64,000 bases of DNA from an uncultured Candidatus Binatia bacterium (GCA_965204505.1 CBDBFB010000002.1:2370778-2434777), one strand, 5' to 3'. Shown: positions 6,250 to 50,365, numbered from the stretch's first letter. Numbers and translations are program-made. The notes: generated by a model not told the origin, from the sequence alone.

Positions 6250-7077
6250 GTCGGGTAGGGCACTGGCGCGCGCACCTTTATTGGGCCACGTTTCCAGCCG
6301 CCCTCCCTAAAATTCCGTACGTCGGGTTTTCCCCGGTACGGCTTCAAGCTTCAGGCACCTCGCAGTTCGGCACGGAGCCTTCCGCAGGGTCGCCGAGGTC
6401 AAGGCCGATCCCGCCATACCCCCGAACGGACGCTGCGTTTGCTCCGCCCTTCGACGATGCCACTCGCCGGTTGATGCGTCGCCTCTGTGTGCGAAACCGC
6501 CGGTTGCAACATCGCCACCTGAGCCCAGAGGCCCTCGCTCCGGCCGGGTTATGTTGTCCCGGCCATCACCGCTTGTCGGCCTCATCCGCCAGTCTGGACG
6601 TCTCCGCCTCATTTCCCGGCACGACCGGTTATAGACGCGGTCTTTGACATTCGAGGATCATCCTGTCTGACCTCCAGACCTTCCGGACTTTCGCTGCGGT
6701 ACTTTCGAGTATTGCCGCCTTCAATACGCCGGGAGCCCCGGTGCGTGCGCCTCAGTTTCTTCCGCACCGGCACTGGCCATCGGGTAGGCAAGAAAACCCT
6801 TGGCAGCTCCAATTTATCCCGCAAATCAGCTTCACGCGGGAACGCCCTTTTCGACGCTTGATCCGTTCACTCTCGTTGCGGCCCTGCTCGTTGCTCGCCT
6901 TCCGGGCTGATCGCACAGGAGCGGCACAAAGGCCTCCCTGTCCCCCGAGGCTTTTACGTCCGGGCTTCCAGATCGCCGGGTCGCCCCGTGCGTCTGCCGG
7001 ATATGACTACGGCGCCAAACTGAGAACTGCGCCGGCGGGACTCTCACCCGCTAGTACCGCAGCTAGTCTCGCTGCGC
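6250..7077 (-). mobile_element. ORF-less group II intron (about 830 bp), a second copy of the element at 56380-57283, inserted near the 3' end of the IS66 remnant
   Basis: The reverse complement aligns over its length with 56380-57283. Shared segments include agtcccgccggcgcaRttctcagtttggcgYcgtagtcatatcc and a domain V gaagccgtaccggggaaaacccgacgtacggaat. Its 3' end ...ccctacccgAC abuts IS66 sequence. IS66 homology resumes at 7078 (cctcccctgggcgttcacacccgc). Confidence 0.5.
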
Positions 7078-11544: not shown

Positions 11545-12032
11545 CGCAGACCCCGCAGCGCCGAGGCTATCTCGGCGATCCGCACCGCGCCGATGGCTCC
11601 CTCAAGCCGTACCGTCACTCCCCGCGCCTCGATCGACACCGAACCCACCGCCGTTGTCTCCTCCACCACCTCCAACTCGGCGAAGGCAGGAACGCTCCCG
11701 GGCGCCGCCACCCCAGCCTTGCCCCCTGCCTGGCTCCGCTCCGCCCCAGCCTCAGCCAGGCTTCCCGCCGCCCCCGAACCCGGCGGCGTCAGCCTGCCCC
11801 GCTGTGCCAGCTTTCGCCATGCGCTCACCTGACTGACCGACAACCCGTGGCGTTGCGCCACTTCCCCCACCTTCACTCCAGGCCAGCAACACTCCCGGAC
11901 CACCTGCGCCTTCTCCTCGTCCGTCCATCTCCGATCCCCAGCCGTCGCCGGCGGCCGGACAACCTCCGTATCCCCGCCCGCCGCCGCCTCCCGGTCCAGC
12001 TCCTCCTCGACACCCCGTTCGACATCATCCAT
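11541..12032 (-). CDS. tnpA: IS66 TnpA (Orf1, HTH protein)
   Basis: MDDVERGVEEELDREAAAGG...RWTDEEKAQVVRECCWPGVKVGEVAQRHGLSVSQVSAWRKLAQRG. The start follows the GGAAGGAGGG SD. The upstream TTG start in the ORF track is not needed. Confidence 0.75.
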   Translation of the reverse strand: MDDVERGVEEELDREAAAGGDTEVVRPPATAGDRRWTDEEKAQVVRECCWPGVKVGEVAQRHGLSVSQVSAWRKLAQRGRLTPPGSGAAGSLAEAGAERSQAGGKAGVAAPGSVPAFAELEVVEETTAVGSVSIEARGVTVRLEGAIGAVRIAEIASALRGLR

Positions 12033-12117
12033 TGCCTTGCCCTCCTTCCTCTGGTTGGAGGGCAAGCCTACCCCCTCATACTCGGGGTTAGGAAGATGGG
12101 GTGTTCGTTACGCTTAC

Positions 12118-14311: not shown

Positions 14312-14342
14312 CCCTTGACATTTACGGCACTGTCTCATAATC

Positions 14343-14502
14343 GCCCAGCGGCCCAGCGGCCCAGCGGCCCAGCGGCCCAGCGGCCCAGCGGCCCAGCGGC
14401 CCAGCGGCCCAGCGGCCCAGCGGCCCAGCGGCCCAGCGGCCCAGCGGCCCAGCGGCCCAGCGGCCCAGCGGCCCAGCGGCCCAGCGGCCCAGCGGCCCAG
14501 CG
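14343..14502. repeat. Octanucleotide microsatellite (GCCCAGCG)x20
   Basis: Counted directly: twenty perfect units, then ggcagcgacATG (14512). Confidence 0.95.
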
Positions 14503-14511
14503 GGCAGCGAC

Positions 14512-17500
14512 ATGAGGTGCGCCCGGCGGGAGGCCGGCCCGCCTGACCCGGCCGCCGCCCCTCGAGGGCGCGCACACAAGCTCCTCTCCCCTTCATCCGG
14601 ACTGACCGGCGGCCGCCTGGCCGCTCCGGCGGTCTCGCGCCGGGCCTTGTCCCCGTGGCGCCGCCCCGCCCGCCTCCCCGTCCTCGCGCTGCTGCTCGGC
14701 GCGCTCGGCCTGTTCGCGGCCGCGCCCGCCCAGGCGCAGTCCCAGATCTGGTCGGCGACGCTGACAGTCGGTGATATCGATGACGACGGGGCGTATCTCG
14801 GCTGCGATAACTCTGGCTGCCCCTCGGCGCTCACGGACGATGAACTCGAGCACAACGGTGAGAAATATACCGTCGAAAACCTTTATTACAACAATGGTAG
14901 GGTATCGTTGAAGTTGGGCGGGATACAACCGAGCGCGACGTCACCGGCCCCGACCCCAGGGTCGAAGTTTGACGGGATGGTGTTGCATCTCGGCACTGTG
15001 CGGCTACCCGTTGGTGGAGTTGTTAGATTTAGCGATACCGGTTGGCACAACTGGTATGTCGACCCGCAATGGACCGACGGCCAGCGGGTCGCGGTGAAGC
15101 TGGAGATTCCGGCGAAGTCGCCGTGGTTGTGGCCGGACGGGACCCGGCATCACGACAAGAACCAGATCTGGTCCACCACGATGGCGGCGAAGGCCCTCGA
15201 GCCGACGCGATGGGGCACGGACTCGTCCGGCTGCAGGACCGGTGTGTCGGGGGGCACTTGCCCCCTCGCGATGGGCGCCAACAGGTTCACTTACGCGGGC
15301 AATACCTACACCATCAGCGATTTCTATCACCGCAACGGCACTCTGTTCGCGGGCTTGAGCTCGGGCAGCGCCGCCGCGATCACCGCTGCAAGGTCGCTGA
15401 TGCTGATCGTCAAGTATCCCGCTGGCGCCGAAAGGCGGTTCCCCCTGAGGAATCTGACCGCCAGCGGTTCTTCGGCCACCGCCTCCTGGCCCGTCGACGA
15501 CATGCGCTGGGGCTCCTACGGTCATCCACACCCCACCGACCCACAACGAAATCCCGCCGTGTGGGCGGCCAACTTCGCGGTGACTCTGGCCGTGGTCGAG
15601 GTGCCGGAGCCTGTGACCGTGACCGTGACGAGTCCGGCGCCGCGCACCCACACGGTGACCGTGTCGGTGCCCACGGCGGTCGCCGCGGAGACCATCATAT
15701 CCCTGGGCACGTACGGCAGGGTCGGCCACCGTGTGTGGACGGACGTGAGGGATCCCGACCTGGTAAGCCATTGCGATCCGATGGATGCGTGGGACCCGGT
15801 CTTCCTGAATTCCGATCGCAAGTATCCGTTCGCCTACATCCAGGCGGGGCAGCGGAGCACCACGTTCAACCTTTGCCTTCTCGGAGTCCCGAAGGACGTG
15901 GAGAACCAGGTGCTGTCAAACCAGGTCACCGTGTACCTGCCGCGGGGGAGGTCGTCGGTGATTTACGACATCAACGTCGGCAGCGCCTACGGCGGCGGGT
16001 CCGGGACCGCGGAATTCGAGGGCGGCGAGGGGCCGGGCTCCGGCGGGGAGGAGGAACGCGACCCGCTGACGGCGGTCTTCGAGGAGGTGCCGGAAGAGCA
16101 TGACGGCACGGAGTTCGCGTTCCTGGTGCGTCTGAGCGAGACGGTGGGGAGTTTCAGCCGGTCGCCGCGCTTGTGGTCGTTCGCGGTGACGCAGGGCCGG
16201 GTGACGGGCGTGGAGCAGATCGGCGCCGGGCTGTGGCGGGTCACGGTGCGGCCGGCGTCGCCGAGCGACGTGACGGTGACGCTTGCGGGCGGGCGGGACT
16301 GCGACGACGAGCCGTCGGGCGCGGTGTGCACGCCGGACGGGCGGGCGCTGTCGAACACGTCGAGTGCGAGGGTCGCGGCGGGTCCGCAGCAGCAGCAGGA
16401 GGTGTTGGTCACGCCGGAGCCGGCCGACGTGCGGGTGGTGCCGGGCGACGGCAGCCTGACGGTGAGCTGGACGGCGGTGGCGCACCCGCGCGTCGCTGCG
16501 GAGCGGGTGCAGCACGCGCTGCGCTGGAGCCAGGAGGCGGGCGTGTGGGCCAACCCGTCGGGCAACAACGGCATCGCGGTGGAGGCCGGCGTGAACGGCT
16601 ACACCATCACCGGGCTGAGGAACGGCGTGGCGACCGGGGTGTTCGTGCGCGCCTTCGTGGGCCGGCTCCGGTCGGAGCGCAGCGAGCACTCGAGCGGGTG
16701 GGTCCGTGTGAAGGGCGAGTCGACGACGCCGCGGGCGGCAACCCAGACCGTGGCGGTAGAGTTCGGCAAGGTCCCGGCGGAGCATGACGGGCAGACGGCG
16801 TTCGCGCTGGACGTGCAGTCGGGCTCGAAGCCCGCCCCGGAGGCGTTCAAGGTGACGGCCGGGAAGGTGACGGGCGTGGAGTCGCTGGACCCGGTGCTGT
16901 GGCGGGTGCGCGTCAAGCCGGAGTCCTGGAAGGACGTGAAGATAGCGCTCGGCGCGGCGTCGGCGAAGGTCCGGGGTCCGGCGCGCATCCGGGTCGCGGC
17001 CGCGCGGGCGAAGGAGGGCAAGGACGCCTCGCTGGACTTCGCGGTGACGCTGAGCCGCGCGGCGTCGGGGCCGGTGTCTGTGGACTATGCAACCGAGAAC
17101 GGCACGGCCACGGCGGGCGAGGACTACACGGCCGCGTCGGGCACGCTCGTCTTCGCGGCGGGCGAGACGGAGAAGACGGTCTCGGTGCCGCTGCTCGACG
17201 ACGCGCATGACGAGGGCAAGGAGACGTTCACGCTGAAGCTCTCGAACCCGCAGGGGGCGTATCTGCGCGCGATGCACCGCGAGGCGAAGGGGGTCATCAG
17301 GAACGAGGACCCGCTGCAGCGGGACTGGCTGGCGCGCTTCGGTCGCGCGGCCGCGGCGGACGCGGTGGCGGCGGTGACGGCGCGGCTGGAGACGCCGCGG
17401 AGCGCGGGCTCGCACCTGACGGTGGGCGGCCAGCGCCTGTCGCTCGGGGGCCGGGCGCTGGCGGAGGCGCTGACGGGGTTCGCGCGCCGCTACGGCGCTC

Positions 17501-30072: not shown

Positions 30073-32054
<1,982 letters not shown>

Positions 32055-32114
32055 CAGCGTCGCAGCGTGTAACACGGGAAAGTTTTCTTGGGAATCGCCG
32101 ATTCTCTCGAGTAA

Positions 32115-33530
32115 CTACGCTGCTGCCGGTGCGCCGTTGGGCATTTCTTCGTTGACGGCGGCCTGGACAAGCCGGTAGCCGAGAGTCCGGGCCTTTCGGT
32201 TGAGGTTGGCGAAGGTGCGATCGATGCGCCGCTTCTCATAGGCGTCCATGCCCTTCTCGACGTATTCCTCGCCCCGCGTCACCATCAGGTAGATGAGGCA
32301 GGCGAGCTCGCGCGCGGTTGCGGTGATGGCGACGGCCGCGTCCTTGCGGGCGAGACGGGCGCGGTGTTTGGCGCCGATGAAGGTCTGGCTCCTTCGCGCT
32401 CCCAAGGCGGCCATCCGAAGCGCCTGCGCGACCGGGTTGACCACCTTGGGCGCCCGGCCCGGCAATGGCTTGCCGCCGCTGATCCGGGTCCCCGGCGCCA
32501 CCCCCAGCCAGGAGCAGAAGTGCTGGGCGGAAGGGAAGGCGGAGAAGTCCGGGCCGATCTCCGAGGCGATGGTCAGGACGGTTCCGGTGCCGACGGTCGG
32601 GATCGCGGTGAGGTCGACGCCCATCAGCTCGTGCAGGGCCATGGTCAAGGCCCTGTCGCCGGCCGCAGACTTCTTGCCTCCGGTGCGCGACAGCGTCTTC
32701 CAGCCTTCGCCGGACGATCCGTCACCAGAGCCTTCGTCCCCGGATGAGCTGCCGCCTGGCGGCGTCAGGCGCTCGATCTGCGCCGCGATCTGTCCCTCGC
32801 AGGCCTCGATCTGCTGTTCGAGGAAGTCGTAGCGCTGCATGGCCTGCTCCAGCGCGAACAGGTGCTCCTCGCGCCAGGTGCCCTCCAGGCTTGCGGCGAT
32901 CATCTCAACGCTGGCCTTGACCCGCCAGTTCCGGAACGACGCCAGACGCCGCGGGTCGCGCTCGCCGCCGATGATCGCCCGCAGGATCTTCTGTCCGGTC
33001 TCGCCCATGATGTCGGCCAGCACCGAGTCCAGCCGGACGTTCATCTCGGTCAGCGCCTTCTGCATGTGCTGCACGCAACGCGCGCGGTCCTCGATCAGCC
33101 GCTTCGCCTGCCGCACGTAGGAGCGGAGCGGGCACACCGCATCCCCGGGACGGAAGGCGCCCCGCAGAAGCCCGTAGGACAGCAGCTGCCAGATCCACTG
33201 GCAATCGAGCACGTCGCTCTTGCGCCCGGCGATCTGCTTCGTCATCCGCGGCGGCACCAGCAACACCTCGAAGCCCGCGCGCTCCAGCACCTCGTACACC
33301 GGGATCCAGTACACCGAGGTCGATTCCATCGCCACCTTCTTCACCCCGCACGACCCCAGCCAGGCCGCCATCGCCTTCAGGTCCCGTGTGAAGGCGTCGA
33401 ACGACCGGACCGGCTCCGCACAGCGCTCCGGATCCACCGCCACAAAGTGACGGTCCTTGCCGATGTCGATCCCCGCGCAGTCCGGGTTCACCACCTTCAG
33501 ACGCTCCGTCCTCTTGCTCTTCCGTGGCAT
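32115..33530 (-). CDS. IS110-family transposase (IS1111-like subgroup)
   Basis: MPRKSKRTERLKVVNPDCAGIDIGKDRHFVAV... and ...GVDLTAIPTVGTGTVLTIASEIGPDFSAFPSAQHFCSWLGVAPGTRISGGK... SD gggagga. Confidence 0.8.
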   Translation of the reverse strand: MPRKSKRTERLKVVNPDCAGIDIGKDRHFVAVDPERCAEPVRSFDAFTRDLKAMAAWLGSCGVKKVAMESTSVYWIPVYEVLERAGFEVLLVPPRMTKQIAGRKSDVLDCQWIWQLLSYGLLRGAFRPGDAVCPLRSYVRQAKRLIEDRARCVQHMQKALTEMNVRLDSVLADIMGETGQKILRAIIGGERDPRRLASFRNWRVKASVEMIAASLEGTWREEHLFALEQAMQRYDFLEQQIEACEGQIAAQIERLTPPGGSSSGDEGSGDGSSGEGWKTLSRTGGKKSAAGDRALTMALHELMGVDLTAIPTVGTGTVLTIASEIGPDFSAFPSAQHFCSWLGVAPGTRISGGKPLPGRAPKVVNPVAQALRMAALGARRSQTFIGAKHRARLARKDAAVAITATARELACLIYLMVTRGEEYVEKGMDAYEKRRIDRTFANLNRKARTLGYRLVQAAVNEEMPNGAPAAA

Positions 33531-35878
33531 CTCAAGTCCTCCCGCCTTGTGTTGTGCCGGGGAGGAACCACACGGCGAAATCTCAATCTCTCGAACGAGG
33601 TCGCGGCCAAGCCGCGCCATCAGTGACAAAAGCCGATCGTGGTTCGGGCCAAGCTCCAGAACGGGTGCCTGTGCACGCCATTGAACCGACGGCCTCGACT
33701 CCCCGGCCACCGTCACTTCACCGCATCACCGCCCCCCGGTGCAAGCCCCGGTTACTTTCGCGACTAAGCCGCCGCGTCGCGCGGGGGTGCCCGCTCCGGA
33801 GAATCTTCGCCGCCAGCCCTGCGCTTTCGCTGCCACAACTGCTTCCTTGCATTGACGCCTCAGGACCGCCCGCGATCCACGGCTTCGGCCGGGTATGCTC
33901 TGACCTCTCCCTCCCGCTCAAGTGCCGCTCGGGCTAACCCGTTGATATCCAGCGTCTTTTGTGCCCCCATCGCCGATGTCCCGCCATGCGGTTCCGTCTC
34001 TACGGCGGAGCCGGTATTCTTCCACACCTGCCGCACCATGGTGCCTGTCGTGCCTTGTCTGCGACCGGGTGCGCTCCCTTGCGCAGGTCGAGCCCCTCCG
34101 ACCCGCTCGCACCATGGAAAAGGTGTGTTCTCTCCGTAACACGGGCGTATACCGATCGTGTACCGGTCCAAACACACGCCTGCGATTTCAAGGACTTGGC
34201 GGACTCCAGGCTGCAACGCAAAAGCGACGCAAGGCCATTCACCCTGGCGAAATCCTCCAGCTTGTATCCTACGGGTGATCCGGGCGGTCGCGCCCGCCAG
34301 CGACCGGCAGCGGCTTTTCCATGACAGCCCCGGCGTGACGAGGATGCTCGGACGAGGCGCGGTCGCAGGCTTGCATGCTCAAGGCCATGAACCCCGCCGC
34401 GTGAGCGCCCTCGCGCGCTAGAGTACGGAGCATCGGACGAATGCGCTGGAGAATCCGCTGCCGGGATCGCGGTTCCCTGGGGAACCCAACCGTGCAGACG
34501 AACGACAGGCTGCGCACGGGCATGAACTGCGGCGGGCCGCTGAGCCCGGGAGCGGGAGGGGGGCGGTGGAATGCCCCGGCCCCGGCCCGGTGGCGATGCC
34601 GGGGTTCCCCGAATCGATCCGGGGATGGGTCTCTCTCGCCGGCGACGGCCTCGGGGCTGGCCGCGAGGAGGGAGGGTGTCTACAGTTCGAGGTCCACGTC
34701 GAGCAGCTTTTCTTCCGGTTCGCGCGCCTCTTCCTGTACGGGCTCGCGGTCCGGTCCACGTGAGCGGTCCTCCTCGGGTTCGGTTTCCCGTTCCGGGTCC
34801 CAGGATTCGAGACCGTCCGCGTCCCGTCCGGCACTCCGTTCCGGCGATTTCAGGTCGTCCTCCCAGTCGAGGTCATGCCCCGGTTGATGCCCGCCCCCGT
34901 GTCCCGCGTCCGGCTGAAGCTCGGGTTCGTACTCGCGATCGATGCGGTCCACGTGGCCGGCGTCCCGCTCTTCGGGCGGTTCGAGGCCCAACTCCATCTC
35001 GTGCGCGGCTTCTCTGGCGACTCCATCCAACGCCGAGATCCGCTCTCCAGTCGCTCTCTCCAGTTGTTCGGAGAGCTTCCTGGCATCGTCTGTGACCAGC
35101 TCGGCATGGTCCCGTGCGCGGCTGATGGCCACGTAGAAGGCTTTCTGGTTGGTCAGGTTCGGATTGCCGGCGGGCATTGCGGCAACGATATGGTCTACGG
35201 TCCTGCCCTGAAAAGCATGCACCGTATTCGCCCAGGCCCTGTCCATGTGGCGGAGTTGCGGGTCGTCTTCGTCCAGTCCGGCTTCCTTTCCGTTCTCCAG
35301 CCGGAACCGGACTCCCTCCTTTTCGATGGATTCCACCTCCGCTGTCTCGCCGTTCACGAGTTCCGAGCCTGGATCGTTGCGCGTCCACCGGACCCAATCG
35401 CCCGCCCGGAGCTCCATCTCCTCGCTCCTGTAGACCTCCACGCCGCCCTTGGCGGCGGCAATCCGGTACGGCCGCCAGGCCACAAGATCCCCACCGCCGC
35501 CGTCCAGCCAGACCGTGTTGCGCTGGTAGTCGACCCGCGCGACCTCGCGCTCGTCTCCTTTTTCCACCCCGAGCGTCCTGTACTGCCGGTTGAAGATCAC
35601 CGTGTCTCCGGCCGAGTAGTTGGAGGCCCGGGCCATCTCCGCCCGGGTCAGGCCCCTCGGCACGAGCTTCTTGCCCTGGCGGGCGGGACCCGAGACCGCG
35701 CCTTCGGCGATCAGATTCTCGCGGACCCTCGTGTTGATCTCGTCCCGCAGAGCCCGAGTTGGGGCGATCACCCCTGCTGCCGTGCGTTGCTCGGGAGACA
35801 GTTTCAGCCAGCGTTCGGCGGCTTCGAGGCCGATGTCCTCCCGTTCCACCTGCACAACCCGGTCGCCGAGCTTCTCGA

Positions 35879-37864
35879 GTGCGCCGTGCAAGGCGCCATC
35901 CCTTAGCGGGTTGCGAGACCCGCCCGGCAACTGTCGCTCCAGCCGGTAGCAGTCGGAGCGGACGATGGAGGTAACGACATGGTTTGAAGCACTCCGATGA
36001 AACGGGCCGCCTTGGGCGGCTCAGCGACCATGCGGGCCGCAACGCGAGTGAACGCCGAGCAGGCCTCGAAACTGGCAACGCGGAAGCCGACCCGCCTCGA
36101 GTACGGGAAAGGCTGCCATCGGCCGGGAAGCGAGCGACACACGCACCGGCCGGTTCCGCCGGGGTATTGGCGGCGGCACGCATGGAAGAAGGGGATGGAC
36201 GCAACACGGGAAGCCCCGGCGGTGGCGTAGCACGCGCCAACCGACAACCCGCGAGGGATGGGTCGGGCCGTTCGGGGTGGCGGAGAGGTCCGTAGTACCG
36301 CGGAAGCCGGGTAATGCCGGTGGAGGGAAGGGGCCTTGGTTCGAGAGCAGCGTTTGGAAGGAGGAAGGGACATGGGGACTGGCGAGAGCCTATCCGACCC
36401 GGAAAAGGTCCGGAGACTCCAGACGGCGCTACATGCGAAAGCGAAGGAGGCCCCGGGCTTTCGGTTCTACTCACTGAGCGACAAGGTGTGGCGCGCCGAC
36501 GTGATGGCGGTCGCCTGGCAGGAGGTCCGCCGCAATGGCGGAGCCGCCGGGGTGGACGGTCAGACGGTAGCGGACATCGAGGCGCAAGGCGTGGAGCGGT
36601 GGCTTGGGGAACTGAGGCGGGACCTGAAGGCGGGAACCTATCGGCCCGAGGCGGTCCGGCAGGTTCTCATACCAAAGAAGCAGCGTGGGAAGTTGCGGCC
36701 CCTGGGCATTCCCTGCATACGGGACAGGGTGGCGCAGACGGCGGCGATGCTAGTGCTGTCGCCGATCTTCGAGGCCGACCTGCAACCGGAACAGTATGCC
36801 TACAGGCTGGGCCGGAGCGCGAATGATGCTGTCAGGCGCGTACACCGGCTGTTGAACACGGGCCACCGCGAGGTGGTGGACGCGGATCTAACGGACTACT
36901 TCGGCCAGATTCCGCACGCCGAACTGCTCAAGTCCGTCGCCCGGCGCGTGAGCGACGGGCGGATGCTGGGCTGGGTTAAGGCGTGGCTTGAGATGGCGGT
37001 CGAAGAAGACGACGGCAAGGGCGGCAAACGCCGTACGAACCGGGCGCGTCGCGAGAGGAAGGGAACCCCTCAAGGTTCTCCGATCTCCCCGTTGCTCTCC
37101 AACATCTACATGCGCCGCTTCATACTGGGCTGGAAGGTGCTGGGCCATGCCCGGCGCTTCAAGGCGGAAGTCGTCAACTATGCCGACGACCTGGTTGTGC
37201 TCGGCAAATCGTCGTCAGCGGAAATGCTGGCGGTGGTCGAGAACCTGATGGAACGGCTGAAACTGACGGTCAATGCCGAGAAGACCCGATGCTGCCGGGC
37301 GCCGGAGGACTCGTTTGAGTTCCTTGGCTATCGGATTGGACGCAACTACCGCCCGCACGGGAAGGGGAGCTACATCGGCACCCGGCCCAGCAAGGCGAGC
37401 GTCCAGAGCATCTGCCGCAGGATTAGCGAACTAACGGAACCCCGCTATGGGCTCCTGGACCAGGAGGTCGTGGCCGAACGGCTCAATCGACTGATGCTCG
37501 GGTGGTCAAAGTACTTCATCCTGGGCCAGGTCGAGCCGGCCTATGCCGCGATCGACAGGCACGCTATCAAGCGGCTGCTCCAGTGGCGGCGTCGCAAGCA
37601 CAAGGTGAGAGCCCGTAATTATGTGCAATACGGGTACGAGCAGCTCTGGACTGAGCACGGTCTCATCCGCCTTGCACCGCGAGCGACACGCTTTCCGTGG
37701 GCGAAGGCATGATCTCGTCCGAGAGCCGTGTGCGGGAAAACCGCACGCACGGTTCGATGAGCGGGGACTGGAAACGCGGCCAAGGGAGCCGGACTGAGGC
37801 CCGGAGCGAAAGCGACGGACAAGCCACCGGACCCTAAAGCTGGCGCGCCAGTCCTCGACTCTAC
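35879..37864 (+). mobile_element. Group II intron (copy 2, 1986 bp) inserted antisense in the relaxase gene
   Basis: 5' GTGCGCCGTGCAAGG and 3' ...cctcgactctAC. Identical to 39668-41653. Confidence 0.75.
36372..37712 (+). CDS. Group II intron reverse transcriptase/maturase
   Basis: 446 aa from MGTGESLSDPEKVRRLQTALHAKAKEAP. YADD present. About 75-80% identical to the 30562-31902 protein. Confidence 0.85.
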   Translation: MGTGESLSDPEKVRRLQTALHAKAKEAPGFRFYSLSDKVWRADVMAVAWQEVRRNGGAAGVDGQTVADIEAQGVERWLGELRRDLKAGTYRPEAVRQVLIPKKQRGKLRPLGIPCIRDRVAQTAAMLVLSPIFEADLQPEQYAYRLGRSANDAVRRVHRLLNTGHREVVDADLTDYFGQIPHAELLKSVARRVSDGRMLGWVKAWLEMAVEEDDGKGGKRRTNRARRERKGTPQGSPISPLLSNIYMRRFILGWKVLGHARRFKAEVVNYADDLVVLGKSSSAEMLAVVENLMERLKLTVNAEKTRCCRAPEDSFEFLGYRIGRNYRPHGKGSYIGTRPSKASVQSICRRISELTEPRYGLLDQEVVAERLNRLMLGWSKYFILGQVEPAYAAIDRHAIKRLLQWRRRKHKVRARNYVQYGYEQLWTEHGLIRLAPRATRFPWAKA

Positions 37865-39667
37865 ACGCGGTCTTCACCTCGCCTGCCAGGCCCGCCCGCA
37901 CCGCTTCCTTGAGCTCCATGTCGCGCTGGCGAAGGATCTCGTCCATCACCGCGGTCTGCATTCCGGCGCGCCTGAGTTGCTCGAATGGCTTCCCCGCCTC
38001 CACCGCCCCGAGCTGCTTCTCGTCCCCGACCAGCACCACCCGAGGGACCCGGAGCGTGGTCGCGGCCTTGAGGAGATCCCGCATCTGCTCGCTCGACGCG
38101 AGCGATGACTCGTCCACCACCAGGACCGTCCTCGAGAACGAGGCGCGCAACTGGCGCAGACCCTTCACCGTGCCCCGGCCCTCGATGACTCCCGCGTGGC
38201 GGGCCAGGAACCGTTGCAGAGTCTCCGATTCGATTCCGGATTCCTGGGAGAGCGTGCGCGCGGCCGACGCCGAAGGCGCAAGGCCCACCGCCCGGTAGTC
38301 GCGGCTCTCCGCCAGCGTCCGAAGCCGCTTCAGCATCGTCGTCTTGCCCGTTCCCGCATAGCCCTGCACTCCCACCACGCGGTCTTTCGATGCGAGCACC
38401 ATCCTGACCGCTTCCTTCTGCCCCTTGTTGAGACGTCCTCCGTGGAGCTTCGTCTCCGCAATCCAGCGCCGCATGATCGCCTTCCCCGAGCCCTGGCCCG
38501 CGTGCATCAGCGCGATGGCCTCGGACTCGCGCCCGATTGCCGCGTCCGTGGTCCAGTGCCTGCCGTGATCCAGACCCCTGGCGGCGTGCAGTCCGCCCTC
38601 GCGTTCGAGGTCCGAGACGGCCCGTTCCGCCGCCTCCACCGTGACCGCGCCCGGCTCCCGGGACAGTGCAGCCGCCAGGAGGTCCCCATGGCCGAACACC
38701 GCCTGGCGTTCGGAAAGGTGCTCGACCGCCCAGGTTGCCGCCTCCGCGGCAGGCTGTCCCCGGTCCGTGAACAGGTCCGGCGCCGGGAGTTCTCGTTCCG
38801 CCTTGCGCGCCTTAGCCCGCACCGCCTCCGCCGAAAACCCCATCTCCGCGGCCTGGCGCTCCCAGGACCGGCGCAGTTCGCCCCGTTCCACGTCGCGCTT
38901 CGCCGCCCGCGTCATCAGCGTGGCCCGCGCCGCCAGGTGCGGGTTGTCCCCCGTCCCGCCCAGGCCGTGCTCTCTCATCGCCGCCTCGATCTCCGACCGC
39001 CGCGTCGAGAACTCCTCGATCACCTCCCGTGATACCCCGGCGATCTCGAACCGCCCGTCCGGGTGCGTCTTCTCTATCCCGTACCCGAGATCCCGGAGCC
39101 CTTGCGCCAGCTCCGCCCGGTAGATCGCTCCGATCGTCATCTTGCCCTTGAAGAGCCCGTCGTCCACCATTGTGCGCCACCTTTGATCCTCGCCTTGCAC
39201 CATGTTGGCGACAACGGCATGAGTGTGGAGTTGAGGGTCCAGGTTGCGGGAGGTGTCGTGGCGGAAGGTCGCCGCCACCATCTTCTGGCCGCCGGCCCGG
39301 ACCATCGCGCCCGTCTCCCGGTCCTGCATCCGGGTCTCGACGGCATTCTTCTCGATCCACGCCAACGTCCTGCCCACTGCCCTGTCATGGGCGTCCACGA
39401 TCCGCTCGTCTCCGCCCACCAGCGCCATGAGCGACACCGACTTGGGTGCGGACAGCGTCACGTCACGGCCCGGACGGTGCTGAATGTTGCCGTCGAGGTC
39501 CTTGCGGCCGAGTTGGCGCTCGCCGGGTACCTTGCCCTCGAGGATGGCCCGGAACGCATCGGAGTCTACCGGGCCGGAGAGCCCGAGTTCTTCCGCGCCC
39601 CGGCCGGCCCAGGCGCTCGCTTCCTTGTGGGCGGGATCGTCTTTCCCGTAGTACCCATCCCTTTCGA

Positions 39668-41653
39668 GTGCGCCGTGCAAGGCGCCATCCCTTAGCGGGT
39701 TGCGAGACCCGCCCGGCAACTGTCGCTCCAGCCGGTAGCAGTCGGAGCGGACGATGGAGGTAACGACATGGTTTGAAGCACTCCGATGAAACGGGCCGCC
39801 TTGGGCGGCTCAGCGACCATGCGGGCCGCAACGCGAGTGAACGCCGAGCAGGCCTCGAAACTGGCAACGCGGAAGCCGACCCGCCTCGAGTACGGGAAAG
39901 GCTGCCATCGGCCGGGAAGCGAGCGACACACGCACCGGCCGGTTCCGCCGGGGTATTGGCGGCGGCACGCATGGAAGAAGGGGATGGACGCAACACGGGA
40001 AGCCCCGGCGGTGGCGTAGCACGCGCCAACCGACAACCCGCGAGGGATGGGTCGGGCCGTTCGGGGTGGCGGAGAGGTCCGTAGTACCGCGGAAGCCGGG
40101 TAATGCCGGTGGAGGGAAGGGGCCTTGGTTCGAGAGCAGCGTTTGGAAGGAGGAAGGGACATGGGGACTGGCGAGAGCCTATCCGACCCGGAAAAGGTCC
40201 GGAGACTCCAGACGGCGCTACATGCGAAAGCGAAGGAGGCCCCGGGCTTTCGGTTCTACTCACTGAGCGACAAGGTGTGGCGCGCCGACGTGATGGCGGT
40301 CGCCTGGCAGGAGGTCCGCCGCAATGGCGGAGCCGCCGGGGTGGACGGTCAGACGGTAGCGGACATCGAGGCGCAAGGCGTGGAGCGGTGGCTTGGGGAA
40401 CTGAGGCGGGACCTGAAGGCGGGAACCTATCGGCCCGAGGCGGTCCGGCAGGTTCTCATACCAAAGAAGCAGCGTGGGAAGTTGCGGCCCCTGGGCATTC
40501 CCTGCATACGGGACAGGGTGGCGCAGACGGCGGCGATGCTAGTGCTGTCGCCGATCTTCGAGGCCGACCTGCAACCGGAACAGTATGCCTACAGGCTGGG
40601 CCGGAGCGCGAATGATGCTGTCAGGCGCGTACACCGGCTGTTGAACACGGGCCACCGCGAGGTGGTGGACGCGGATCTAACGGACTACTTCGGCCAGATT
40701 CCGCACGCCGAACTGCTCAAGTCCGTCGCCCGGCGCGTGAGCGACGGGCGGATGCTGGGCTGGGTTAAGGCGTGGCTTGAGATGGCGGTCGAAGAAGACG
40801 ACGGCAAGGGCGGCAAACGCCGTACGAACCGGGCGCGTCGCGAGAGGAAGGGAACCCCTCAAGGTTCTCCGATCTCCCCGTTGCTCTCCAACATCTACAT
40901 GCGCCGCTTCATACTGGGCTGGAAGGTGCTGGGCCATGCCCGGCGCTTCAAGGCGGAAGTCGTCAACTATGCCGACGACCTGGTTGTGCTCGGCAAATCG
41001 TCGTCAGCGGAAATGCTGGCGGTGGTCGAGAACCTGATGGAACGGCTGAAACTGACGGTCAATGCCGAGAAGACCCGATGCTGCCGGGCGCCGGAGGACT
41101 CGTTTGAGTTCCTTGGCTATCGGATTGGACGCAACTACCGCCCGCACGGGAAGGGGAGCTACATCGGCACCCGGCCCAGCAAGGCGAGCGTCCAGAGCAT
41201 CTGCCGCAGGATTAGCGAACTAACGGAACCCCGCTATGGGCTCCTGGACCAGGAGGTCGTGGCCGAACGGCTCAATCGACTGATGCTCGGGTGGTCAAAG
41301 TACTTCATCCTGGGCCAGGTCGAGCCGGCCTATGCCGCGATCGACAGGCACGCTATCAAGCGGCTGCTCCAGTGGCGGCGTCGCAAGCACAAGGTGAGAG
41401 CCCGTAATTATGTGCAATACGGGTACGAGCAGCTCTGGACTGAGCACGGTCTCATCCGCCTTGCACCGCGAGCGACACGCTTTCCGTGGGCGAAGGCATG
41501 ATCTCGTCCGAGAGCCGTGTGCGGGAAAACCGCACGCACGGTTCGATGAGCGGGGACTGGAAACGCGGCCAAGGGAGCCGGACTGAGGCCCGGAGCGAAA
41601 GCGACGGACAAGCCACCGGACCCTAAAGCTGGCGCGCCAGTCCTCGACTCTAC
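39668..41653 (+). mobile_element. Group II intron (copy 3, 1986 bp) inserted antisense in the relaxase gene
   Basis: Sequence identical to copy 2. Flanks are ccctttcga| and |aatagctgg. Confidence 0.75.
40161..41501 (+). CDS. Group II intron reverse transcriptase/maturase
   Basis: Identical to 36372-37712. Confidence 0.85.
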   Translation: MGTGESLSDPEKVRRLQTALHAKAKEAPGFRFYSLSDKVWRADVMAVAWQEVRRNGGAAGVDGQTVADIEAQGVERWLGELRRDLKAGTYRPEAVRQVLIPKKQRGKLRPLGIPCIRDRVAQTAAMLVLSPIFEADLQPEQYAYRLGRSANDAVRRVHRLLNTGHREVVDADLTDYFGQIPHAELLKSVARRVSDGRMLGWVKAWLEMAVEEDDGKGGKRRTNRARRERKGTPQGSPISPLLSNIYMRRFILGWKVLGHARRFKAEVVNYADDLVVLGKSSSAEMLAVVENLMERLKLTVNAEKTRCCRAPEDSFEFLGYRIGRNYRPHGKGSYIGTRPSKASVQSICRRISELTEPRYGLLDQEVVAERLNRLMLGWSKYFILGQVEPAYAAIDRHAIKRLLQWRRRKHKVRARNYVQYGYEQLWTEHGLIRLAPRATRFPWAKA

Positions 41654-42272
41654 AATAGCTGGCGCCCTGCGACGGGGAGGCGATCTTGCCGATGGACGCT
41701 ACCATGGCGGACGCCTCCCGCGTGGTGCGTGTTTCGGTGGTTGTACGGTGTCCATGCCGCCCGCATACGCGCTTCCAGGGCCAGGAACAAGGTACGTGTG
41801 ACGCGACTATCAGCCGTGGCAGCGAATGGCTGCGATTGTCTTTGGCCGGGGGATGTCCCACCGAATTCACGGAACGGGACCGGTGTGCTTCCGCGCCCCT
41901 TGTGGCTGCTGTCAGCTGTTTCTCGGCACTTCAGGACGTGGACATTTTGGATCCGTGGAGGCTCCGTTTCCCCGCTCCCCGGCGGTTGCCGGGGAGCCCG
42001 CCTGCCATCCCTGTCCATTCGGCGACGGCCGGGGCTCCGCGCAAGAAGGGGGAGGGCGCGTGGACAACGAGGCTAACGAAATCCAGGGGCGTCTGGTCGG
42101 CCCAACGCCGGAGACAGCCCGGCATCGAAGGGCCGCGATGTCCGCGGCCGTTCGTGGCCGATAGGAAGTGACCGAGGCGGAGGAAGAACTGCCCAGGACA
42201 ATCGGCAACCAAGCGGCCAGACCCCGCTTCATAAGGGAATTATAGCGGATAGTCACACTCAACCCCCGCCCC

Positions 42273-45783: not shown

Positions 45784-46460
45784 CTACAACCCAACCGCCG
45801 TGGCCTTCACGGCCGCGGTGTCGCTGGATCGACGGAACGGCGTCGGCGGGTTCGAGGTTGAACCGGTCGGTGCCGTTTTTCGTCCTCCGAAGGGAGGGTT
45901 TGTGTGTCGGTCCGTCCAGGGCTATGTCATTGGCCGCCGTTGAGCAATCCTAACGCATGCTGAAACCCATGAAAGGACTCCTTGGCGCATTCTGCGCCGG
46001 ACCGGCGCTTTTCATCTGTTTGCACCGGTACACGACTGACATACGGCCGTGTTACGGAGAGAACACGCCTTTTCCATGGTCATGCGGACAGGACGCTAGC
46101 TAGCCGCGCGGGCAGTTGTGGAATCTCCCGAGTTGCGGTGTTGTGATCGCCATCCAAGGCGCGTCACCCTTTCCACCACACGTGCGCGTCATATCCCTTG
46201 ACAATCAGGCGCACCCCGTCCTAACGTCTTCCTTGCGATCAACTACGCGGAGCCCGTGTGTCGGGTCATCCGCCGAATACAAGAACCCTCGCACGGGCAC
46301 GGGGTAGCTCCCTGTGCCTTGGTGAATACGCGGAACCTCCACAACTCCGTTGTAGTTGGTCGCAGTGGCCCGGCAATCCTGCCGGGTCGTGGTGATCTAT
46401 TCGATGGTCCGGTGTTGAGAATTGCCCACGGGTCTATCGGTCCATCAAGAGAGGTTCGAG

Positions 46461-49400
46461 ATGATCAAGGTGCTGGTTTTCTTGATTCTCGCGGTCTTTG
46501 CCGCGTCGTGGGGAGCTGACGCGGAAGTATTCCGAGGAGATATAGACGTGATAACCGGCGGACAGACCAGGGGTACCGTACAGCCGTGGGACAGGCGTAC
46601 AACCCCAATCCCACAGAACACGGCCGACTGGTACCGCTTCACCCTGCGCGCTCCCCACAAGGTCAATTTTCACCTTACGGCAGTGGGGAGTCGTCCGTCT
46701 CTGTGCTTGTACAACGAGTCAGTGGGGAACTTGATACCTCATGCTGTCAACCTCCGGTGTTCGACCAGGTCATCGGTAGGAGTTGGAAATGGGCTTTCCC
46801 CTGATGGTCGTTTCCTGCCGGGCACATACTACGTCCGGATACGCGCGTCCGGAGGGAGAGCGGACTATCTCCTCACGTACGGCGTTGAGAGTCCGCGTGT
46901 ACACCTGTCGACAACGAGGCTGTCGCTGTCCGAAGGTGACGATGGCACCTACACCGTAAGACTCGGCTCGCGACCCGCAGGCACTGTCAGGGTGCAACTG
47001 GCAAGCGATAGGCCCGCCGTAACGGTCTCTCCGGCGACCCTGACCTTTACGACCGGCGACTGGGACAGGCCGCAAACGGTCACCGTACAAGCAGTGCAGG
47101 ACCCCGACGCCGACGACGAGACGGCGACCCTCAGCCATCGGGTGACGGGTTACGGCAGCGTGACCGACGGCGGCGCGGTGGTGGTTAACGTGAACGACAC
47201 GGACAGCGCGGGTCTCAGGTTCTCGACAAGGCGGCTCGACCTGGACGAGGGTGACACCGGCACCTACACGGCAAGGCTCGGTTCGCGACCCTCGGGCAAC
47301 GTCAGGGTGCAACTGGCAAGCGATAGGCCCGCCGTAACGGTCTCTCCGGCGACCCTGACCTTTACGACCGGCGACTGGGACAGGCCGCAAACGGTCACCA
47401 TACGAGCAGTGCCGGACCCCGACGCCGACGACGAAACGGCGACGCTCAGCCACCGGGTGACGGGTTACGGCAGCGTGACCGACGGCGGCGCGGTGGTGGT
47501 TAACGTGAACGACACGGGCACCGCAAGGCTGATACTCACGGGAAGGTCGATGCGCATAAACGAGGGCGACACCCGCACCTACAGGGCAAGGCTCGGTTCG
47601 CGACCTTCAGGTAACGTCACGGTGCAACTGGTCAGCGATAATCCCGCCGTGACGGTCTCGCCGCAGAGGCTGACCTTCACGACTGGCAACTGGAACAGTT
47701 GGCAAACGGTCACCGTACGAGCATTGCGGGACCGAGACGCCGACGACGAGACGGCGACCCTCAGGCACTGGATTACGGGTTACGGCAACGTAACCGACGG
47801 CGGCACAAAGACGGTCTACGTAAAAGATGCGGAGGCCGGAGGTCTGACGTTCTCGACGGCTTCGATTCGCATAAACGAGGGCGACACCGGGACCTACACG
47901 GTGAAGCTCAAAACGCAGCCCACGGGCAACGTCACGGTTCAATTGGCAAGCACTAATCCCGCCGTGACGGTCTCTCCGCAGAGGCTGACCTTCACGAGCG
48001 TCAACTGGGACAGGCCGCAAACGGTCACCGTGCGAACAGTGCGGGACGCCGACGCCGACGGCGCGCAGGTGAGTCTCAGCCACCGGGTGACCGGTTACGG
48101 TAGTGTGACAGACGGCGGCACAGTGACGGTCGGCGTAATAGATGCGGACACCGCAGGTCTGAGATTCGAACCGACGTCGATTCGCTTAAACGAGGGTGAC
48201 ACCGGGACCTACACGGTAAGGCTCGAGACGCAACCCAGCCGAAACGTCAAAGTGGCACCGGTGTTGAGGGGCGAGGCTTCGGAGTCCGTGACGATCACTC
48301 CGGCGGCGCTGACCTTCACGACCGCCAACTGGGACAGGGCGCAAACGTTCACCGTGCGCGCGGTGCCAGACGATACTCTTGGGGATGGTTATGAGACAAC
48401 GCTTTTCCTCCGCCATAGTGTGGACAGTGGCGACAGCAACTACGATGGCGACACGGGTGGACCGTCTGTCCAGATATCATATTCCGGTCTGCATCAGGGT
48501 ACGTCAGTGATCATCCAGACAATAAAAAATACGATACGTCGAGGCGTGAAGCGCGGCATCTTGAGCAGCCCGCAAAAGGTTATCGGCAGGGACCGTATCC
48601 ACATACCGACCATCCATACTGGGGTTCGTGGCTTCCGGAATGGCGGAGGCGCGACGCTCACGGTGGGCGGTCGACCGATAACGCACAGTGCAGCCACGTT
48701 GGCGCTAGCGTCGTCCGACGCCGGTTGGCGCTCGACGCCGGGCGCCGACCCTGAGGGCGAGTACTGGCGGTACCGGAGTCTGGGTGTTGACGAGTTGCTC
48801 CGGTCCAGCGCGTTCGAGTTGACTCTCGGCGCCACGGAGGACGAAACGCAAAACGGCCCGTTGTCGCAATTGACGCTGTGGGGCCAGGGCGATTTCCAGT
48901 TCTTCGATAGCAAGCCCAGTACAGGGTTGCGCTATGACGGCAACCTCAAGGCGGGATATCTCGGGGTCGAGACGCGGTTCGAGAAACGATGGCTCGCGGG
49001 CGCGGCGGTGTCTCGAACCAAGGTCGTCACCGACTACGCCCACCCGCAGCCCGACGGTGGCCACGAAGACGGTCAACTGGATTTGACCTTGACGACGGCC
49101 TATCCGTATCTGCGGTTTGTATCCGACCCACGGAGCGAGTTCTGGCTCCTCCTGGGCCTGGGCTGGGGCGAAGTCACAAACCAGCGCGTTGAAGCGTCAG
49201 CGCGTGAGAGCAGTAACGCCAGGACGTTCATGGTCGCCGGCGGCGCGCGCCGGGCGTTGACGACCAAAGGGGGCGTGGACGTGGCGCTTCTGGGTGATGC
49301 GGGATACGGGTATCTGAAGAGCAATTCCGGGCCGCAATTGATTGATGGCCTCTCAATCGGCTCGGGGCAGGTACGTCTGGGTGTCGAGGGTTCGTACACC

Positions 49401-49988
49401 GCCGCATTGGAAGCCGGCAGCAACTTGAAACCGTTCGTGGAGGTGGCGGGGCGCTACGACCGCGGCGACGACCATGACGTCGGCCTTGAGATTGTCGGCG
49501 GGGTGTCCTGGACGGATCCGGCCCTGCGCTTGGGCGTGGAGGCGCGCGGGCGGGTGATGGTGCTGCACTCGGCGGATAGCTATCGGGAGTATGGCGCGAG
49601 CGTAGCGGCCAAGGTGTCACCTGGGAGAGGCGGCGAGGGTCTGTCGCTGTCGTTATCGCCGCGTTTGGGCGCGGTGACCGACGGTGCCGACGCGCTGCGG
49701 CGCGACGATGCGTTCCGGCATGCGACCTCTTTCGGCGGCAATGCGGTGTCGCTCAACGCACGGGCGGGATACGGCATTCGGGATTGGCTGATCCGGGGCC
49801 TGCTGACACCGGTCGGGGAACTCGATCTCCAGGAATCAGGTAGCCGACGGGTGCGCATGGGATTGCGCTTCGAACGGCCGGCCTCAGGTCTGGGCGCCCT
49901 GAGGCTGGAATTTTCCGGCGAACGACGCAAGACCGGCGACAGTGCTCCCGAACACCGCATGGACCTGACCGGCCGGTTGCGGTTCTGA
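46461..49988 (+). CDS. Autotransporter-like surface protein with six tandem Calx-beta-like repeats of about 100 aa and a C-terminal beta-barrel
   Basis: MIKVLVFLILAVFAASWGADA is the signal peptide. Repeats ...VRVQLASDRPAVTVSPATLTFTTGDWDRPQTVT.QAV.DPDADDETATLSHRVTGYGSVTDGG occur six times. The C-terminus ...HRMDLTGRLRF ends in Phe, a barrel-terminal residue. SD agagagg. Confidence 0.7.
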   Translation: MIKVLVFLILAVFAASWGADAEVFRGDIDVITGGQTRGTVQPWDRRTTPIPQNTADWYRFTLRAPHKVNFHLTAVGSRPSLCLYNESVGNLIPHAVNLRCSTRSSVGVGNGLSPDGRFLPGTYYVRIRASGGRADYLLTYGVESPRVHLSTTRLSLSEGDDGTYTVRLGSRPAGTVRVQLASDRPAVTVSPATLTFTTGDWDRPQTVTVQAVQDPDADDETATLSHRVTGYGSVTDGGAVVVNVNDTDSAGLRFSTRRLDLDEGDTGTYTARLGSRPSGNVRVQLASDRPAVTVSPATLTFTTGDWDRPQTVTIRAVPDPDADDETATLSHRVTGYGSVTDGGAVVVNVNDTGTARLILTGRSMRINEGDTRTYRARLGSRPSGNVTVQLVSDNPAVTVSPQRLTFTTGNWNSWQTVTVRALRDRDADDETATLRHWITGYGNVTDGGTKTVYVKDAEAGGLTFSTASIRINEGDTGTYTVKLKTQPTGNVTVQLASTNPAVTVSPQRLTFTSVNWDRPQTVTVRTVRDADADGAQVSLSHRVTGYGSVTDGGTVTVGVIDADTAGLRFEPTSIRLNEGDTGTYTVRLETQPSRNVKVAPVLRGEASESVTITPAALTFTTANWDRAQTFTVRAVPDDTLGDGYETTLFLRHSVDSGDSNYDGDTGGPSVQISYSGLHQGTSVIIQTIKNTIRRGVKRGILSSPQKVIGRDRIHIPTIHTGVRGFRNGGGATLTVGGRPITHSAATLALASSDAGWRSTPGADPEGEYWRYRSLGVDELLRSSAFELTLGATEDETQNGPLSQLTLWGQGDFQFFDSKPSTGLRYDGNLKAGYLGVETRFEKRWLAGAAVSRTKVVTDYAHPQPDGGHEDGQLDLTLTTAYPYLRFVSDPRSEFWLLLGLGWGEVTNQRVEASARESSNARTFMVAGGARRALTTKGGVDVALLGDAGYGYLKSNSGPQLIDGLSIGSGQVRLGVEGSYTAALEAGSNLKPFVEVAGRYDRGDDHDVGLEIVGGVSWTDPALRLGVEARGRVMVLHSADSYREYGASVAAKVSPGRGGEGLSLSLSPRLGAVTDGADALRRDDAFRHATSFGGNAVSLNARAGYGIRDWLIRGLLTPVGELDLQESGSRRVRMGLRFERPASGLGALRLEFSGERRKTGDSAPEHRMDLTGRLRF

Positions 49989-50182: not shown

Positions 50183-50365
50183 ATGGCTCGGACCACAGAC
50201 TGGGCCCCGGACCAAGCGGCAATTATGATCGGCCATGTACTGGCGCGGGAACGCATTGACACGATTACTGTTCAGAAAAGACGTGGTCTGTGCCCGATCA
50301 GCGGGCGACGCGTGAGAATCGACGGTCGAGTCGCTGAGGAGAATCTCCATGAATGGCATGAATGA
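50183..50365 (+). CDS. Small HTH protein (AlpA/excisionase-like), overlapping the start of the SIR2-like gene by 17 nt
   Basis: MARTTDWAPDQAAIMIGHVLARERIDTITVQKRRGLCPISGRRVRIDGRVAEENL matches the pattern of MerR/AlpA-type HTH_17 regulators. Start chosen at 50183 within the longer ORF 49994-50365. Confidence 0.35.
   Translation: MARTTDWAPDQAAIMIGHVLARERIDTITVQKRRGLCPISGRRVRIDGRVAEENLHEWHE

Follow-up and report, generated by a model that had tools for sequence, protein, structure and literature searches.

A group II intron interrupts a TrwC-type relaxase gene twice in antisense orientation, once at a recurrently occupied codon

We analyzed a stretch of 64,000 nucleotides (nt) from an uncultured Candidatus Binatia bacterium (GCA_965204505.1, CBDBFB010000002.1:2370778-2434777; hereafter the window), in which the minus-strand gene of a conjugative relaxase is interrupted by two plus-strand copies of one group II intron (Table 1). 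Deletion of both inserts yielded a single open reading frame (ORF) of 1017 codons, running from an ATG at 41705 to a stop codon at 34680. Pfam searches with the spliced product returned TrwC (PF08751; 1.4e-86, residues 12-293), AAA_30 (9.6e-50), AAA_19, and UvrD_C_2, and by these matches the host gene is a relaxase-helicase of the MobF/TrwC type. The TrwC domain contains the histidine-triad motif HDTSRNLDPQLHTH. The N-terminal tyrosines of the window allele are arranged as Y17-F18 and Y23-Y24, and the related sequences L001, L087, and P0013 carry Y-Y at positions 17-18. We take Y17 to align with the catalytic tyrosine of TrwC, and its catalytic role is putative. Genes for a coupling protein, trwA- or trwB-like genes, and genes of a type IV secretion system (T4SS) were not found next to the relaxase in the window.

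Both junctions fall between nt 1 and nt 2 of a phenylalanine codon, namely F18 (...GASY^FERDGYY...; carets mark insertion points) and F619 (...KTAF^EKLG...), and for this reason the relaxase frame is continuous across the three exons. The junction at codon 18 (copy B) lies one base past the codon of the putative catalytic tyrosine. When the gene is read without removal of the inserts, the frames of exons 1 and 2 both continue into antisense intron sequence for about 119 codons before a stop codon ends them. A group II ribozyme folds and splices only from the transcript of its own strand, in this case the plus strand. Because the ribozyme exists only in that transcript, the introns cannot be removed from the relaxase mRNA, and inactivation of the relaxase follows from the antisense orientation together with the in-frame stops. 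The gene would be dead, with translation ending after 17 native and about 119 junk codons. The original prediction had described two identical antisense introns, not spliced from the mRNA of a minus-strand TrwC-type gene that they disrupt with its frame preserved. All of this was confirmed at the sequence level, the intron coordinates being exact, and a mis-called strand is excluded by the minus-strand ORF with its TrwC and AAA_30 domains.

The two introns are identical at 1986 of 1986 nt, and the identity reaches further by 4 nt leftward (TCGA) and 1 nt rightward (A). Both start with GTGCG and end with CTAC, as expected from the conserved GUGYG ... AY boundaries, and on the plus strand each copy matches RF02003 with 80.1 bits (gathering score 49) and RF00029 with 43.8 bits (gathering score 40). 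Domain 5 is canonical in both copies, and the ribozyme measures about 610 nt once the ORF is left out. In copy A this ORF (458 amino acids, aa) is open from a TTG at 36336, and the encoded protein comprises a reverse transcriptase (RT; RVT_1, 4e-35, profile positions 1-205 of 205) with a YADD motif at aa 270 and a maturase domain (GIIM, 7.3e-12). The GIIM match covers residues 356-432 of the 458-aa ORF, the protein stops 26 residues later, and no HNH/endonuclease family was detected in a Pfam scan (E<=1e-3). Membership in the group II introns is indicated by the boundaries, the ribozyme domains including domain 5, the RT-maturase in domain 4, and the pairing of exon-binding sites (EBS) with intron-binding sites (IBS) described below. 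The nearest solved structure to the protein is the GsI-IIC RT (9e-47), LtrA being far (8e-25). Among the PLSDB matches listed for the protein, the best was to a Planctomyces plasmid (57%) and none was a Sinorhizobium record. The ribozyme appears IIB-like, with EBS1, a weak EBS2, and EBS3; the nearest solved proteins are IIC RTs, which are distant anchors. We liken the intron to endonuclease-less IIB-type retroelements and use RmInt1 as a mechanistic model, with no class assignment meant. The identical copies, the empty sites in homologues, and the many recent-looking insertions are signs of mobility in the sequence, and the intron is active-looking and presumably mobile.

Target recognition was mapped by covariation. 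Intron ends were determined by BLAST at 79 related genomic loci, which gave 52 non-redundant insertion sites, and every intron alignment column was compared with every flank position across these sites. A first hint to the EBS positions came from the third family intron of the window (30073-32054), which differs from the relaxase introns in two patches of domain I that match its own flank. EBS1 sits in a 9-nt hairpin loop (CCCG-CCUCGAGUA-CGGG) of the minimum free energy fold. Its core, nt 219-223, pairs with flank positions -1 to -5 in 90-98% of the 52 sites (mutual information 1.1-1.75 bits), and the extension at nt 224-225 pairs with -6 and -7 in 63-67% of them. EBS3 pairs with position +1 in 96% (1.3 bits), and a candidate EBS2 covaries weakly with -10 to -15. 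When sites were shuffled among introns 2000 times, the observed versus permuted means were 6.00 versus 2.97 for EBS1, 3.19 versus 2.54 for EBS2, and 0.94 versus 0.42 for EBS3; none of the 2000 permutations reached any of the three observed means. Both relaxase sites are of normal pairing quality for the intron family. The original prediction had proposed the flanking TYTCGA as IBS1-like and had called for a test of its pairing with EBS1 and EBS2 of domain I. The flanks are as it described them, and what the intron pairs with is only YTCGA (-5 to -1) plus the A at +1; EBS1 was located and pairs with both sites, and EBS2 pairing is weak (4/6 and 3/6). Hairpin targeting of the IIC kind was considered and rejected, since the fold energy of the upstream single-stranded DNA (ssDNA) at the 52 sites was -5.48 kcal/mol versus -5.22 kcal/mol after shuffling (p=0.50). 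IIC introns are recognized by an upstream stem-loop and by having no EBS2, and a weak EBS2 signal is present here.

Homologous relaxase loci total roughly 5000. A protein search retrieved intact homologues (P0001-P0016) of exactly 1017 aa, with 82-94% identity and 100% coverage. At the DNA level, the loci L084 and L085 align without gaps over 3054 nt, with 90.9% nt identity to the window exons, and both insertion sites are empty in them. The empty codon-18 sites read ...CCCTCTCGA^AGTAGC... and ...CCCGTTCGA^AGTAGC..., and the empty codon-619 site reads ...GAGCTTCTCGA^ACGCGG.... Allele-specific codon changes number 81 synonymous and 28 non-synonymous in the window allele, versus 61/35 and 80/26 in the intact alleles, so that by this pattern the interrupted allele is indistinguishable from intact ones. 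The identity of the copies, the undecayed exons, and a substitution pattern like that of intact alleles support the view that both insertions are recent, and in this comparison with intron-free homologues the young age originally proposed held up. Relaxase paralogues of the same clade occur several per genome on Mb-sized contigs, and one contig carries both an intron protein (P0155, 100% identical) and the intact relaxase paralogue P0013. A supply of relaxase in trans by such paralogues is plausible.

The same nucleotide is occupied in the same antisense orientation in L001, L080, L081, L083, P0138, P0009, and P0094, that is, in eight alleles together with the window and in at least seven others, which are 57-93% identical to the window relaxase. 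In L001, from an alphaproteobacterial metagenome-assembled genome (MAG), the relaxase is 60% identical and the antisense intron, 90% identical at the nt level, splits codon 18 after its first nt (VSY^YEKDSYY). The EBS1 of this intron, AUGAAUA, fits its own flank TTTTCGT, and the AFEKLG site is empty. A metagenome scan for the junction pattern yielded L080, L081, and L083, whose relaxases are 57-59% identical to that of the window and 76-88% to one another, with junctions Y^EQDGYY and Y^ERDGYY and ORFs open for about 1000 codons. A further match to this pattern, L082, was a false positive. P0138, found by a protein search with the antisense 3'-end peptide of the intron, has MVASIGKIASPSQGVGY joined to that peptide, and in P0009 (93%) and P0094 (69%) an antisense 5'-end peptide of the intron (...PLRDGALHGAL and APLHGAH) is joined to ERDGYY.... 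Occupied and intact alleles are interleaved: the window allele is 92% identical to the intact L084 but only 57-60% identical to the occupied L001 and L080-L083. Because they are interleaved and undecayed, repeated recent homing is indicated rather than one old event. Judging from these alleles, codon 18 is a recurrent target of the intron lineage and not a random hit, and a reading of both hits as chance events is not supported; only the codon-619 insertion looks like a one-off. The latter was found in no other allele by protein and junction searches that included antisense intron peptides and viral contigs, and scans of viral contigs for either junction gave zero matches. The codon-619 copy probably arose when the intron jumped locally, as a secondary event, into the similar CTCGA^A sequence that lies on the same strand at a distance of 1.8 kb.

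A candidate nic region of an origin of transfer (oriT), with the plus-strand sequence GTGGCAGCGAATGGCTGCGATTGTCTTTGGCCGG, lies antisense to the relaxase gene, some 130-140 nt upstream of its ATG. The nic oligonucleotide of R388 is GCGCACCGAAAGGTGCGTATTGTCT^ATAGCCC, i.e., GCGCACCGAAAGGTGCGT-ATTGTCT^ATAGCCC (PMC4176350), and the candidate has in common with it the 7-mer ATTGTCT and an 8-nt spacing from stem to nic (the hairpin here is of 5 bp). In R388, too, the nic is on the strand antisense to trwA-trwB-trwC, and this strand runs away from those genes in its 5'-to-3' direction. ATTGTCT occurs 3 times on the two strands of the window, versus 2.5 expected, and the estimated chance of finding it on that strand within those 300 nt is about 0.006. 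The motif lies at the same distance in L084 (as ATTGTTT), in L085, and in the 78%-identical L087, though the surroundings diverge. Should this candidate be the true nic, the two introns in the relaxase and the third family intron would be in sense orientation on the predicted nicked and transferred strand (T-strand).

Table 1. Coordinates of the interrupted relaxase gene, the intron copies, their recognition sites, and related features of the window.
Feature	Coordinates	Strand	Evidence or remarks
Relaxase exon 1, codons 1-17 and nt 1 of codon 18 (MVASIGKIASPSQGASY^F)	41654..41705	-	TrwC on spliced product
Relaxase exon 2, codons 18-618 and nt 1 of codon 619	37865..39667	-	HxDx..HxH motif HDTSRNLDPQLHTH; Walker A GYAGTGKT
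Relaxase exon 3, codons 619-1017 and stop codon	34680..35878	-	
ORF of interrupted exon 1	41295..41870		
ORF of interrupted exon 2	37506..39719		
Intron copy A, 1986 bp, in relaxase codon 619	35879..37864	+	RF02003 35904-36047; RF00029 37721-37864
Intron copy B, 1986 bp, in relaxase codon 18	39668..41653	+	Identity to copy A; Rfam; junction mapping
Domain 5, copy A (GAGCCGUGUGCGGGAAAACCGCACGCACGGUUC), then long domain 6	37723..37755	+	RF00029 match; AGC triad hairpin
Domain 5, copy B	starts 41512	+	Identical to copy A
Intron-encoded protein, copy A, 446 aa from ATG	36372..37712	+	RT and maturase; YADD
Intron-encoded protein, copy B	40161..41501	+	Identical to that of copy A
EBS1, UCGAGUA (intron nt 219-225)	36097..36103 (A); 39886..39892 (B)	+	Covariation
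EBS2 candidate, CUGGCA (intron nt 194-199)	36072..36077 (A); 39861..39866 (B)	+	Weak covariation with -10 to -15
EBS3, U (intron nt 289)	36167 (A); 39956 (B)	+	Pairs with +1 A at both sites
IBS1, site 1, TTCTCGA (IBS3, A at 37865); antisense of ...A-F619-E-K...	35872..35878	+	TTCTCGA^A: EBS1 core 5/5, all 6/7; EBS2 4/6; EBS3 paired
IBS1, site 2, CTTTCGA (IBS3, A at 41654); antisense of ...Y17-F18-E19...	39661..39667	+	CTTTCGA^A: EBS1 core 5/5 (one G-T), all 5/7; EBS2 3/6; EBS3 paired
Family mean pairing			EBS1 core 4.67/5, all 6.0/7; EBS2 3.1/6; EBS3 94%
Candidate oriT nic region	41819..41846	+	Hairpin GCAGC-GAATG-GCTGC; G-ATTGTCT; putative nic before TTGG
Third family intron, about 78-85% nt identity	30073..32054	+	Starts GCGCG, not GUGCG; intergenic, downstream of relaxase
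Only minus-strand group II intron signal, fragment	6871..7053	-	RF02003 48.8 bits (just below gathering score)

The third family intron sits in a run of TGTAAG-like repeats, where its EBS1 pairs over 7 bp and its EBS2 at 5 of 6 positions (a contiguous 7 bp when two adjacent A-T pairs are included). L084 and L085 carry the corresponding site without an insert. Some 60 nt beyond this intron, an IS110-family element within 32055-33798 (transposase on the minus strand, 32115-33716) has inserted separately. Elsewhere in the family, head-to-tail arrays of two or three full-length introns without spacer were found in Paracoccaceae MAGs (L059, L066, and L069), the 5' flank of the downstream copy being the 3' end of the upstream copy (...CGACTCTAC).

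The window as a whole is a mosaic of mobile DNA: besides a serine recombinase and additional pieces of group II introns (at least seven), it contains three copies of IS110-family and several of IS66-family elements. Positions 1-5560 contain a group II intron 3' end (domains 5 and 6, 551-627) in sense orientation within an IS66 transposase gene, the 5' part of an RF02005 intron (1336-1555), a truncated RT (1876-2562), and a large serine recombinase (3136-4899). In the same region, an RF01999 match (4979-5095) and domains 5 and 6 (5480-5555) may form a short intron without an ORF. Nested introns occupy 55314-58051, where an RF02003-type element (56404-56586) interrupts the RT gene of an RF02005-type intron (184 bits), leaving the parts 55633-56394 and 57131-58051. 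The minus-strand fragment 6871-7053 has a relative in the element at 56363-56806 (inverted repeats I7 and I8). Perfect octamer arrays (GCCCAGCG)n at 7388-7495 (9.1 copies) and 14316-14511 (20.1 copies) lie between a promoter-like TTGACA...CATAAT pair and the ATG of paralogous genes for Cadherin-like/Calx-beta surface proteins (7496-9544 and 14512-18735). The difference in octamer copy number between otherwise identical leaders suggests phase or expression variation by slipped-strand events. Inverted IS66-family repeats of 2625 bp, 96% identical (9494-12118 and 20615-23239), flank 8.5 kb that include a Calx-beta gene, in a composite-transposon-like arrangement, and 109-nt tandem repeats occur in 3 copies each at 19198-19529 and 20339-20674. 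An autotransporter-like ORF (46422-49988) contains 4.1 copies of a 315-nt (105-aa) tandem repeat with 81% matches. A tyrosine integrase gene (52394-53716) lies next to a gene with a SIR2_2 domain (region 50349-53716), which is typical genomic-island cargo, and a gene for a Strawberry-notch-type helicase is also present in the window.

We consider it likely that a mobile intron inserted twice, in antisense orientation, into a MobF relaxase gene, that codon 18 is its habitual target and codon 619 a secondary one, and that both insertions are recent. The host would be an element of the integrative/conjugative type whose TrwC-type relaxase-helicase was interrupted on both occasions. At codon 18 the target would be the complementary strand of the conserved relaxase motif ...S-Y^(Y/F)-E-x-D-x-Y-Y..., read through some 5-7 bp between EBS1 and IBS1 plus one EBS3-IBS3 pair, and the codon-619 copy would stem from a later jump of the same intron onto the look-alike CTCGA^A. 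Not only replication forks but also conjugative processing may expose the occupied strand. According to two accounts (PMC1802570, PMC8914252), endonuclease-less introns reverse splice into ssDNA and use the nascent strand as a primer. We infer the ssDNA entry route, and above all its T-strand version, from strand geometry alone.

Several observations weigh against parts of this interpretation. The closest relatives of the intron (87-90%; L002 and L090-L092) occupy unrelated sites that their EBS1 sequences match, so the lineage is not exclusive to relaxases. In L004 the motif QKSFY^VEISRA of a short, relaxase-like C-terminal ORF is interrupted by an 82%-related intron (3507-5493) in sense orientation; a second conserved relaxase/helicase motif thus also serves as a target in the family. 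The nic assignment consists of a 7-nt match and its position, the hairpin being weak and not conserved, and the surroundings of the L001 relaxase yielded no such motif. No GC-skew bias was seen in the flanks of 51 related loci (27/51 positive, p=0.78; low power). Moreover, after in silico removal of the two introns, a scan for sites with at least 4 Watson-Crick pairs of 5 in the EBS1 core plus the EBS3 pair returned about 90 on the plus and about 75 on the minus strand of the window. All of these sites are empty, and two of them, at 37985 and 39050, lie on the same strand of the relaxase gene. With about 165 equally good sites empty, base pairing is ruled out as a full account of site choice, and something besides pairing must contribute, such as protein contacts, strand accessibility, or history.

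The abundance of such sites lends itself to a rival account, in which two independent chance retrotranspositions reached IBS1-like ectopic sites and no special tie links intron and relaxase. YTCGA^A-type sites are common on both strands, EBS2 pairing is poor at both relaxase sites, close intron relatives lie elsewhere, and the codon-619 insertion recurs in no other allele found. Against chance, codon 18 is occupied at an identical nucleotide, and always antisense, in no fewer than seven further alleles, whose identity ranges from 57% to 93%. L001, P0138, and P0009/P0094 among these came up without a search for that site, and EBS1 varies in step with the allele sequence (UCGAG with YTCGA versus AUGAA with TTCGT), so that we regard chance as improbable. 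The uniform position and orientation could instead reflect one ancient codon-18 insertion that was inherited vertically, intron and relaxase co-diverging without recurrent homing, and the compensatory EBS1/IBS1 difference between the window and L001 would fit such a history. Set against it are the interleaving with intact alleles, the occupied ORFs, which are open over some 1000 codons and show a pattern of purifying selection that a long-dead gene would have lost, and introns that are about 90% identical in nt while their relaxases are about 60% identical in aa. We judge vertical inheritance very improbable. Almost no credence is due to the idea that a single real intron was placed twice by repeat-induced misassembly: perfectly identical repeats of 1986 bp only 1.8 kb apart could invite such an error, but both copies have clean GTGCG...CTAC ends and differing flanks, each flank pair rejoins in frame and matches intact homologues base for base, and misassembly would not create a second precise junction compatible with EBS1 and EBS3 pairing.

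Preferring, as we do, recent insertions of a mobile intron with codon 18 as habitual target, it remains to consider how the strand was chosen. Targeting of replication forks through the lagging-strand template, as in RmInt1 and with no role for the T-strand, is a possible explanation that we entertain tentatively. The intron protein has no endonuclease, retrotransposition of RmInt1 and Ll.LtrB prefers the lagging-strand template (PMC1802570), the plus strand of the window has a mostly positive GC skew, and nine of the ten group II intron signals of the window are on that strand. On the other hand, this skew is confounded by gene orientation and intron content, a minus-strand fragment exists, the 51 related loci show no skew bias, and codon 18 is occupied in the same orientation in eight alleles of different genomes, among which replication direction should vary. 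The original prediction had gone further and read antisense insertion as such as the lagging-strand signature. This does not hold as stated, since the known bias is relative to the fork, introns of this family are found both sense and antisense to host ORFs, and the related loci lack the skew bias. A more far-reaching idea, which we rate as rather unlikely, is that the lineage is specialized on the T-strand of conjugative or integrative MOBF elements, entering at the codon beside that of the catalytic tyrosine, and acts as an RNA-guided "relaxase killer" that sterilizes the element at each homing event. Its ssDNA substrate would then be the nicked T-strand, either on displacement within the donor or on arrival in the recipient, and synthesis of the complementary strand would provide the primer. 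Such a killer might serve mobile-element conflict or host benefit, and it might persist as sibling elements supply relaxase in trans.

Among known systems, RmInt1 of Sinorhizobium meliloti (IIB3/class D) likewise combines an RT and a maturase with the absence of a DNA-binding/endonuclease domain, is targeted through EBS1, EBS2, and EBS3, and is a retroelement living in other mobile DNA; the same ssDNA reverse-splicing pathway would be expected for the window intron. The home of RmInt1 is ISRm2011-2, whereas that of the window intron is the antisense of a relaxase catalytic motif, where each insertion would kill the host gene; furthermore, the EBS2 pairing of the window intron family (mean 3.1/6) is much weaker than that of RmInt1, and the proteins appear not to be close. 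Class C (IIC) introns share the lack of an endonuclease, a short IBS1, an IBS3, and single-stranded targets, but they insert after terminator or attC hairpins, whereas the window family shows no hairpin enrichment, a larger ribozyme, and an EBS2 signal. R388 TrwC resembles the window relaxase in combining TrwC with an AAA_30/UvrD-type helicase, in its N-terminal tyrosines, and in the HxDx..HxH motif, and the R388 oriT resembles the candidate in having ATTGTCT 8 nt after a hairpin, upstream of the relaxase and on the strand antisense to it. It differs in the adjoining trwA/trwB and T4SS genes, which are not seen here, and in the first tyrosine pair, which in the window is Y-F and not Y-Y; the nic of the window is putative.

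To our knowledge, group II introns in relaxase genes are known only in sense orientation, with splicing keeping conjugation working, as in Ll.LtrB. In the searchable literature we found no account of an antisense homing site in a relaxase gene or of T-strand targeting. Ll.LtrB of the Lactococcus lactis pRS01/sex factor is similar in having a conserved part of a conjugative relaxase as its natural home, a tie between the biology of introns and conjugation (PMC6003770, PMC4256276, PMC7947834). On the one hand, Ll.LtrB is a IIA intron with an endonuclease domain, inserted in the sense orientation that restores the relaxase, its splicing being required for relaxase production. On the other hand, the window introns have no endonuclease, lie on the plus strand of a minus-strand gene, and cannot be spliced from its mRNA; their host relaxase is of the MobF/TrwC type, unlike that of Ll.LtrB, and its gene would be destroyed rather than conditionally expressed. 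Here the target lies on the opposite strand at the catalytic motif, yet it recurs across alleles with as little as 57% identity. Provided that the strand occupied is the one transferred, conjugative processing would be a second natural source of ssDNA for endonuclease-less introns besides replication forks, and the locus would offer a testable instance in which a mobile element systematically disables a second one. For the design of a homing assay, the EBS map and a natural target suffice, which makes the proposed link between conjugative DNA processing and intron mobility testable.

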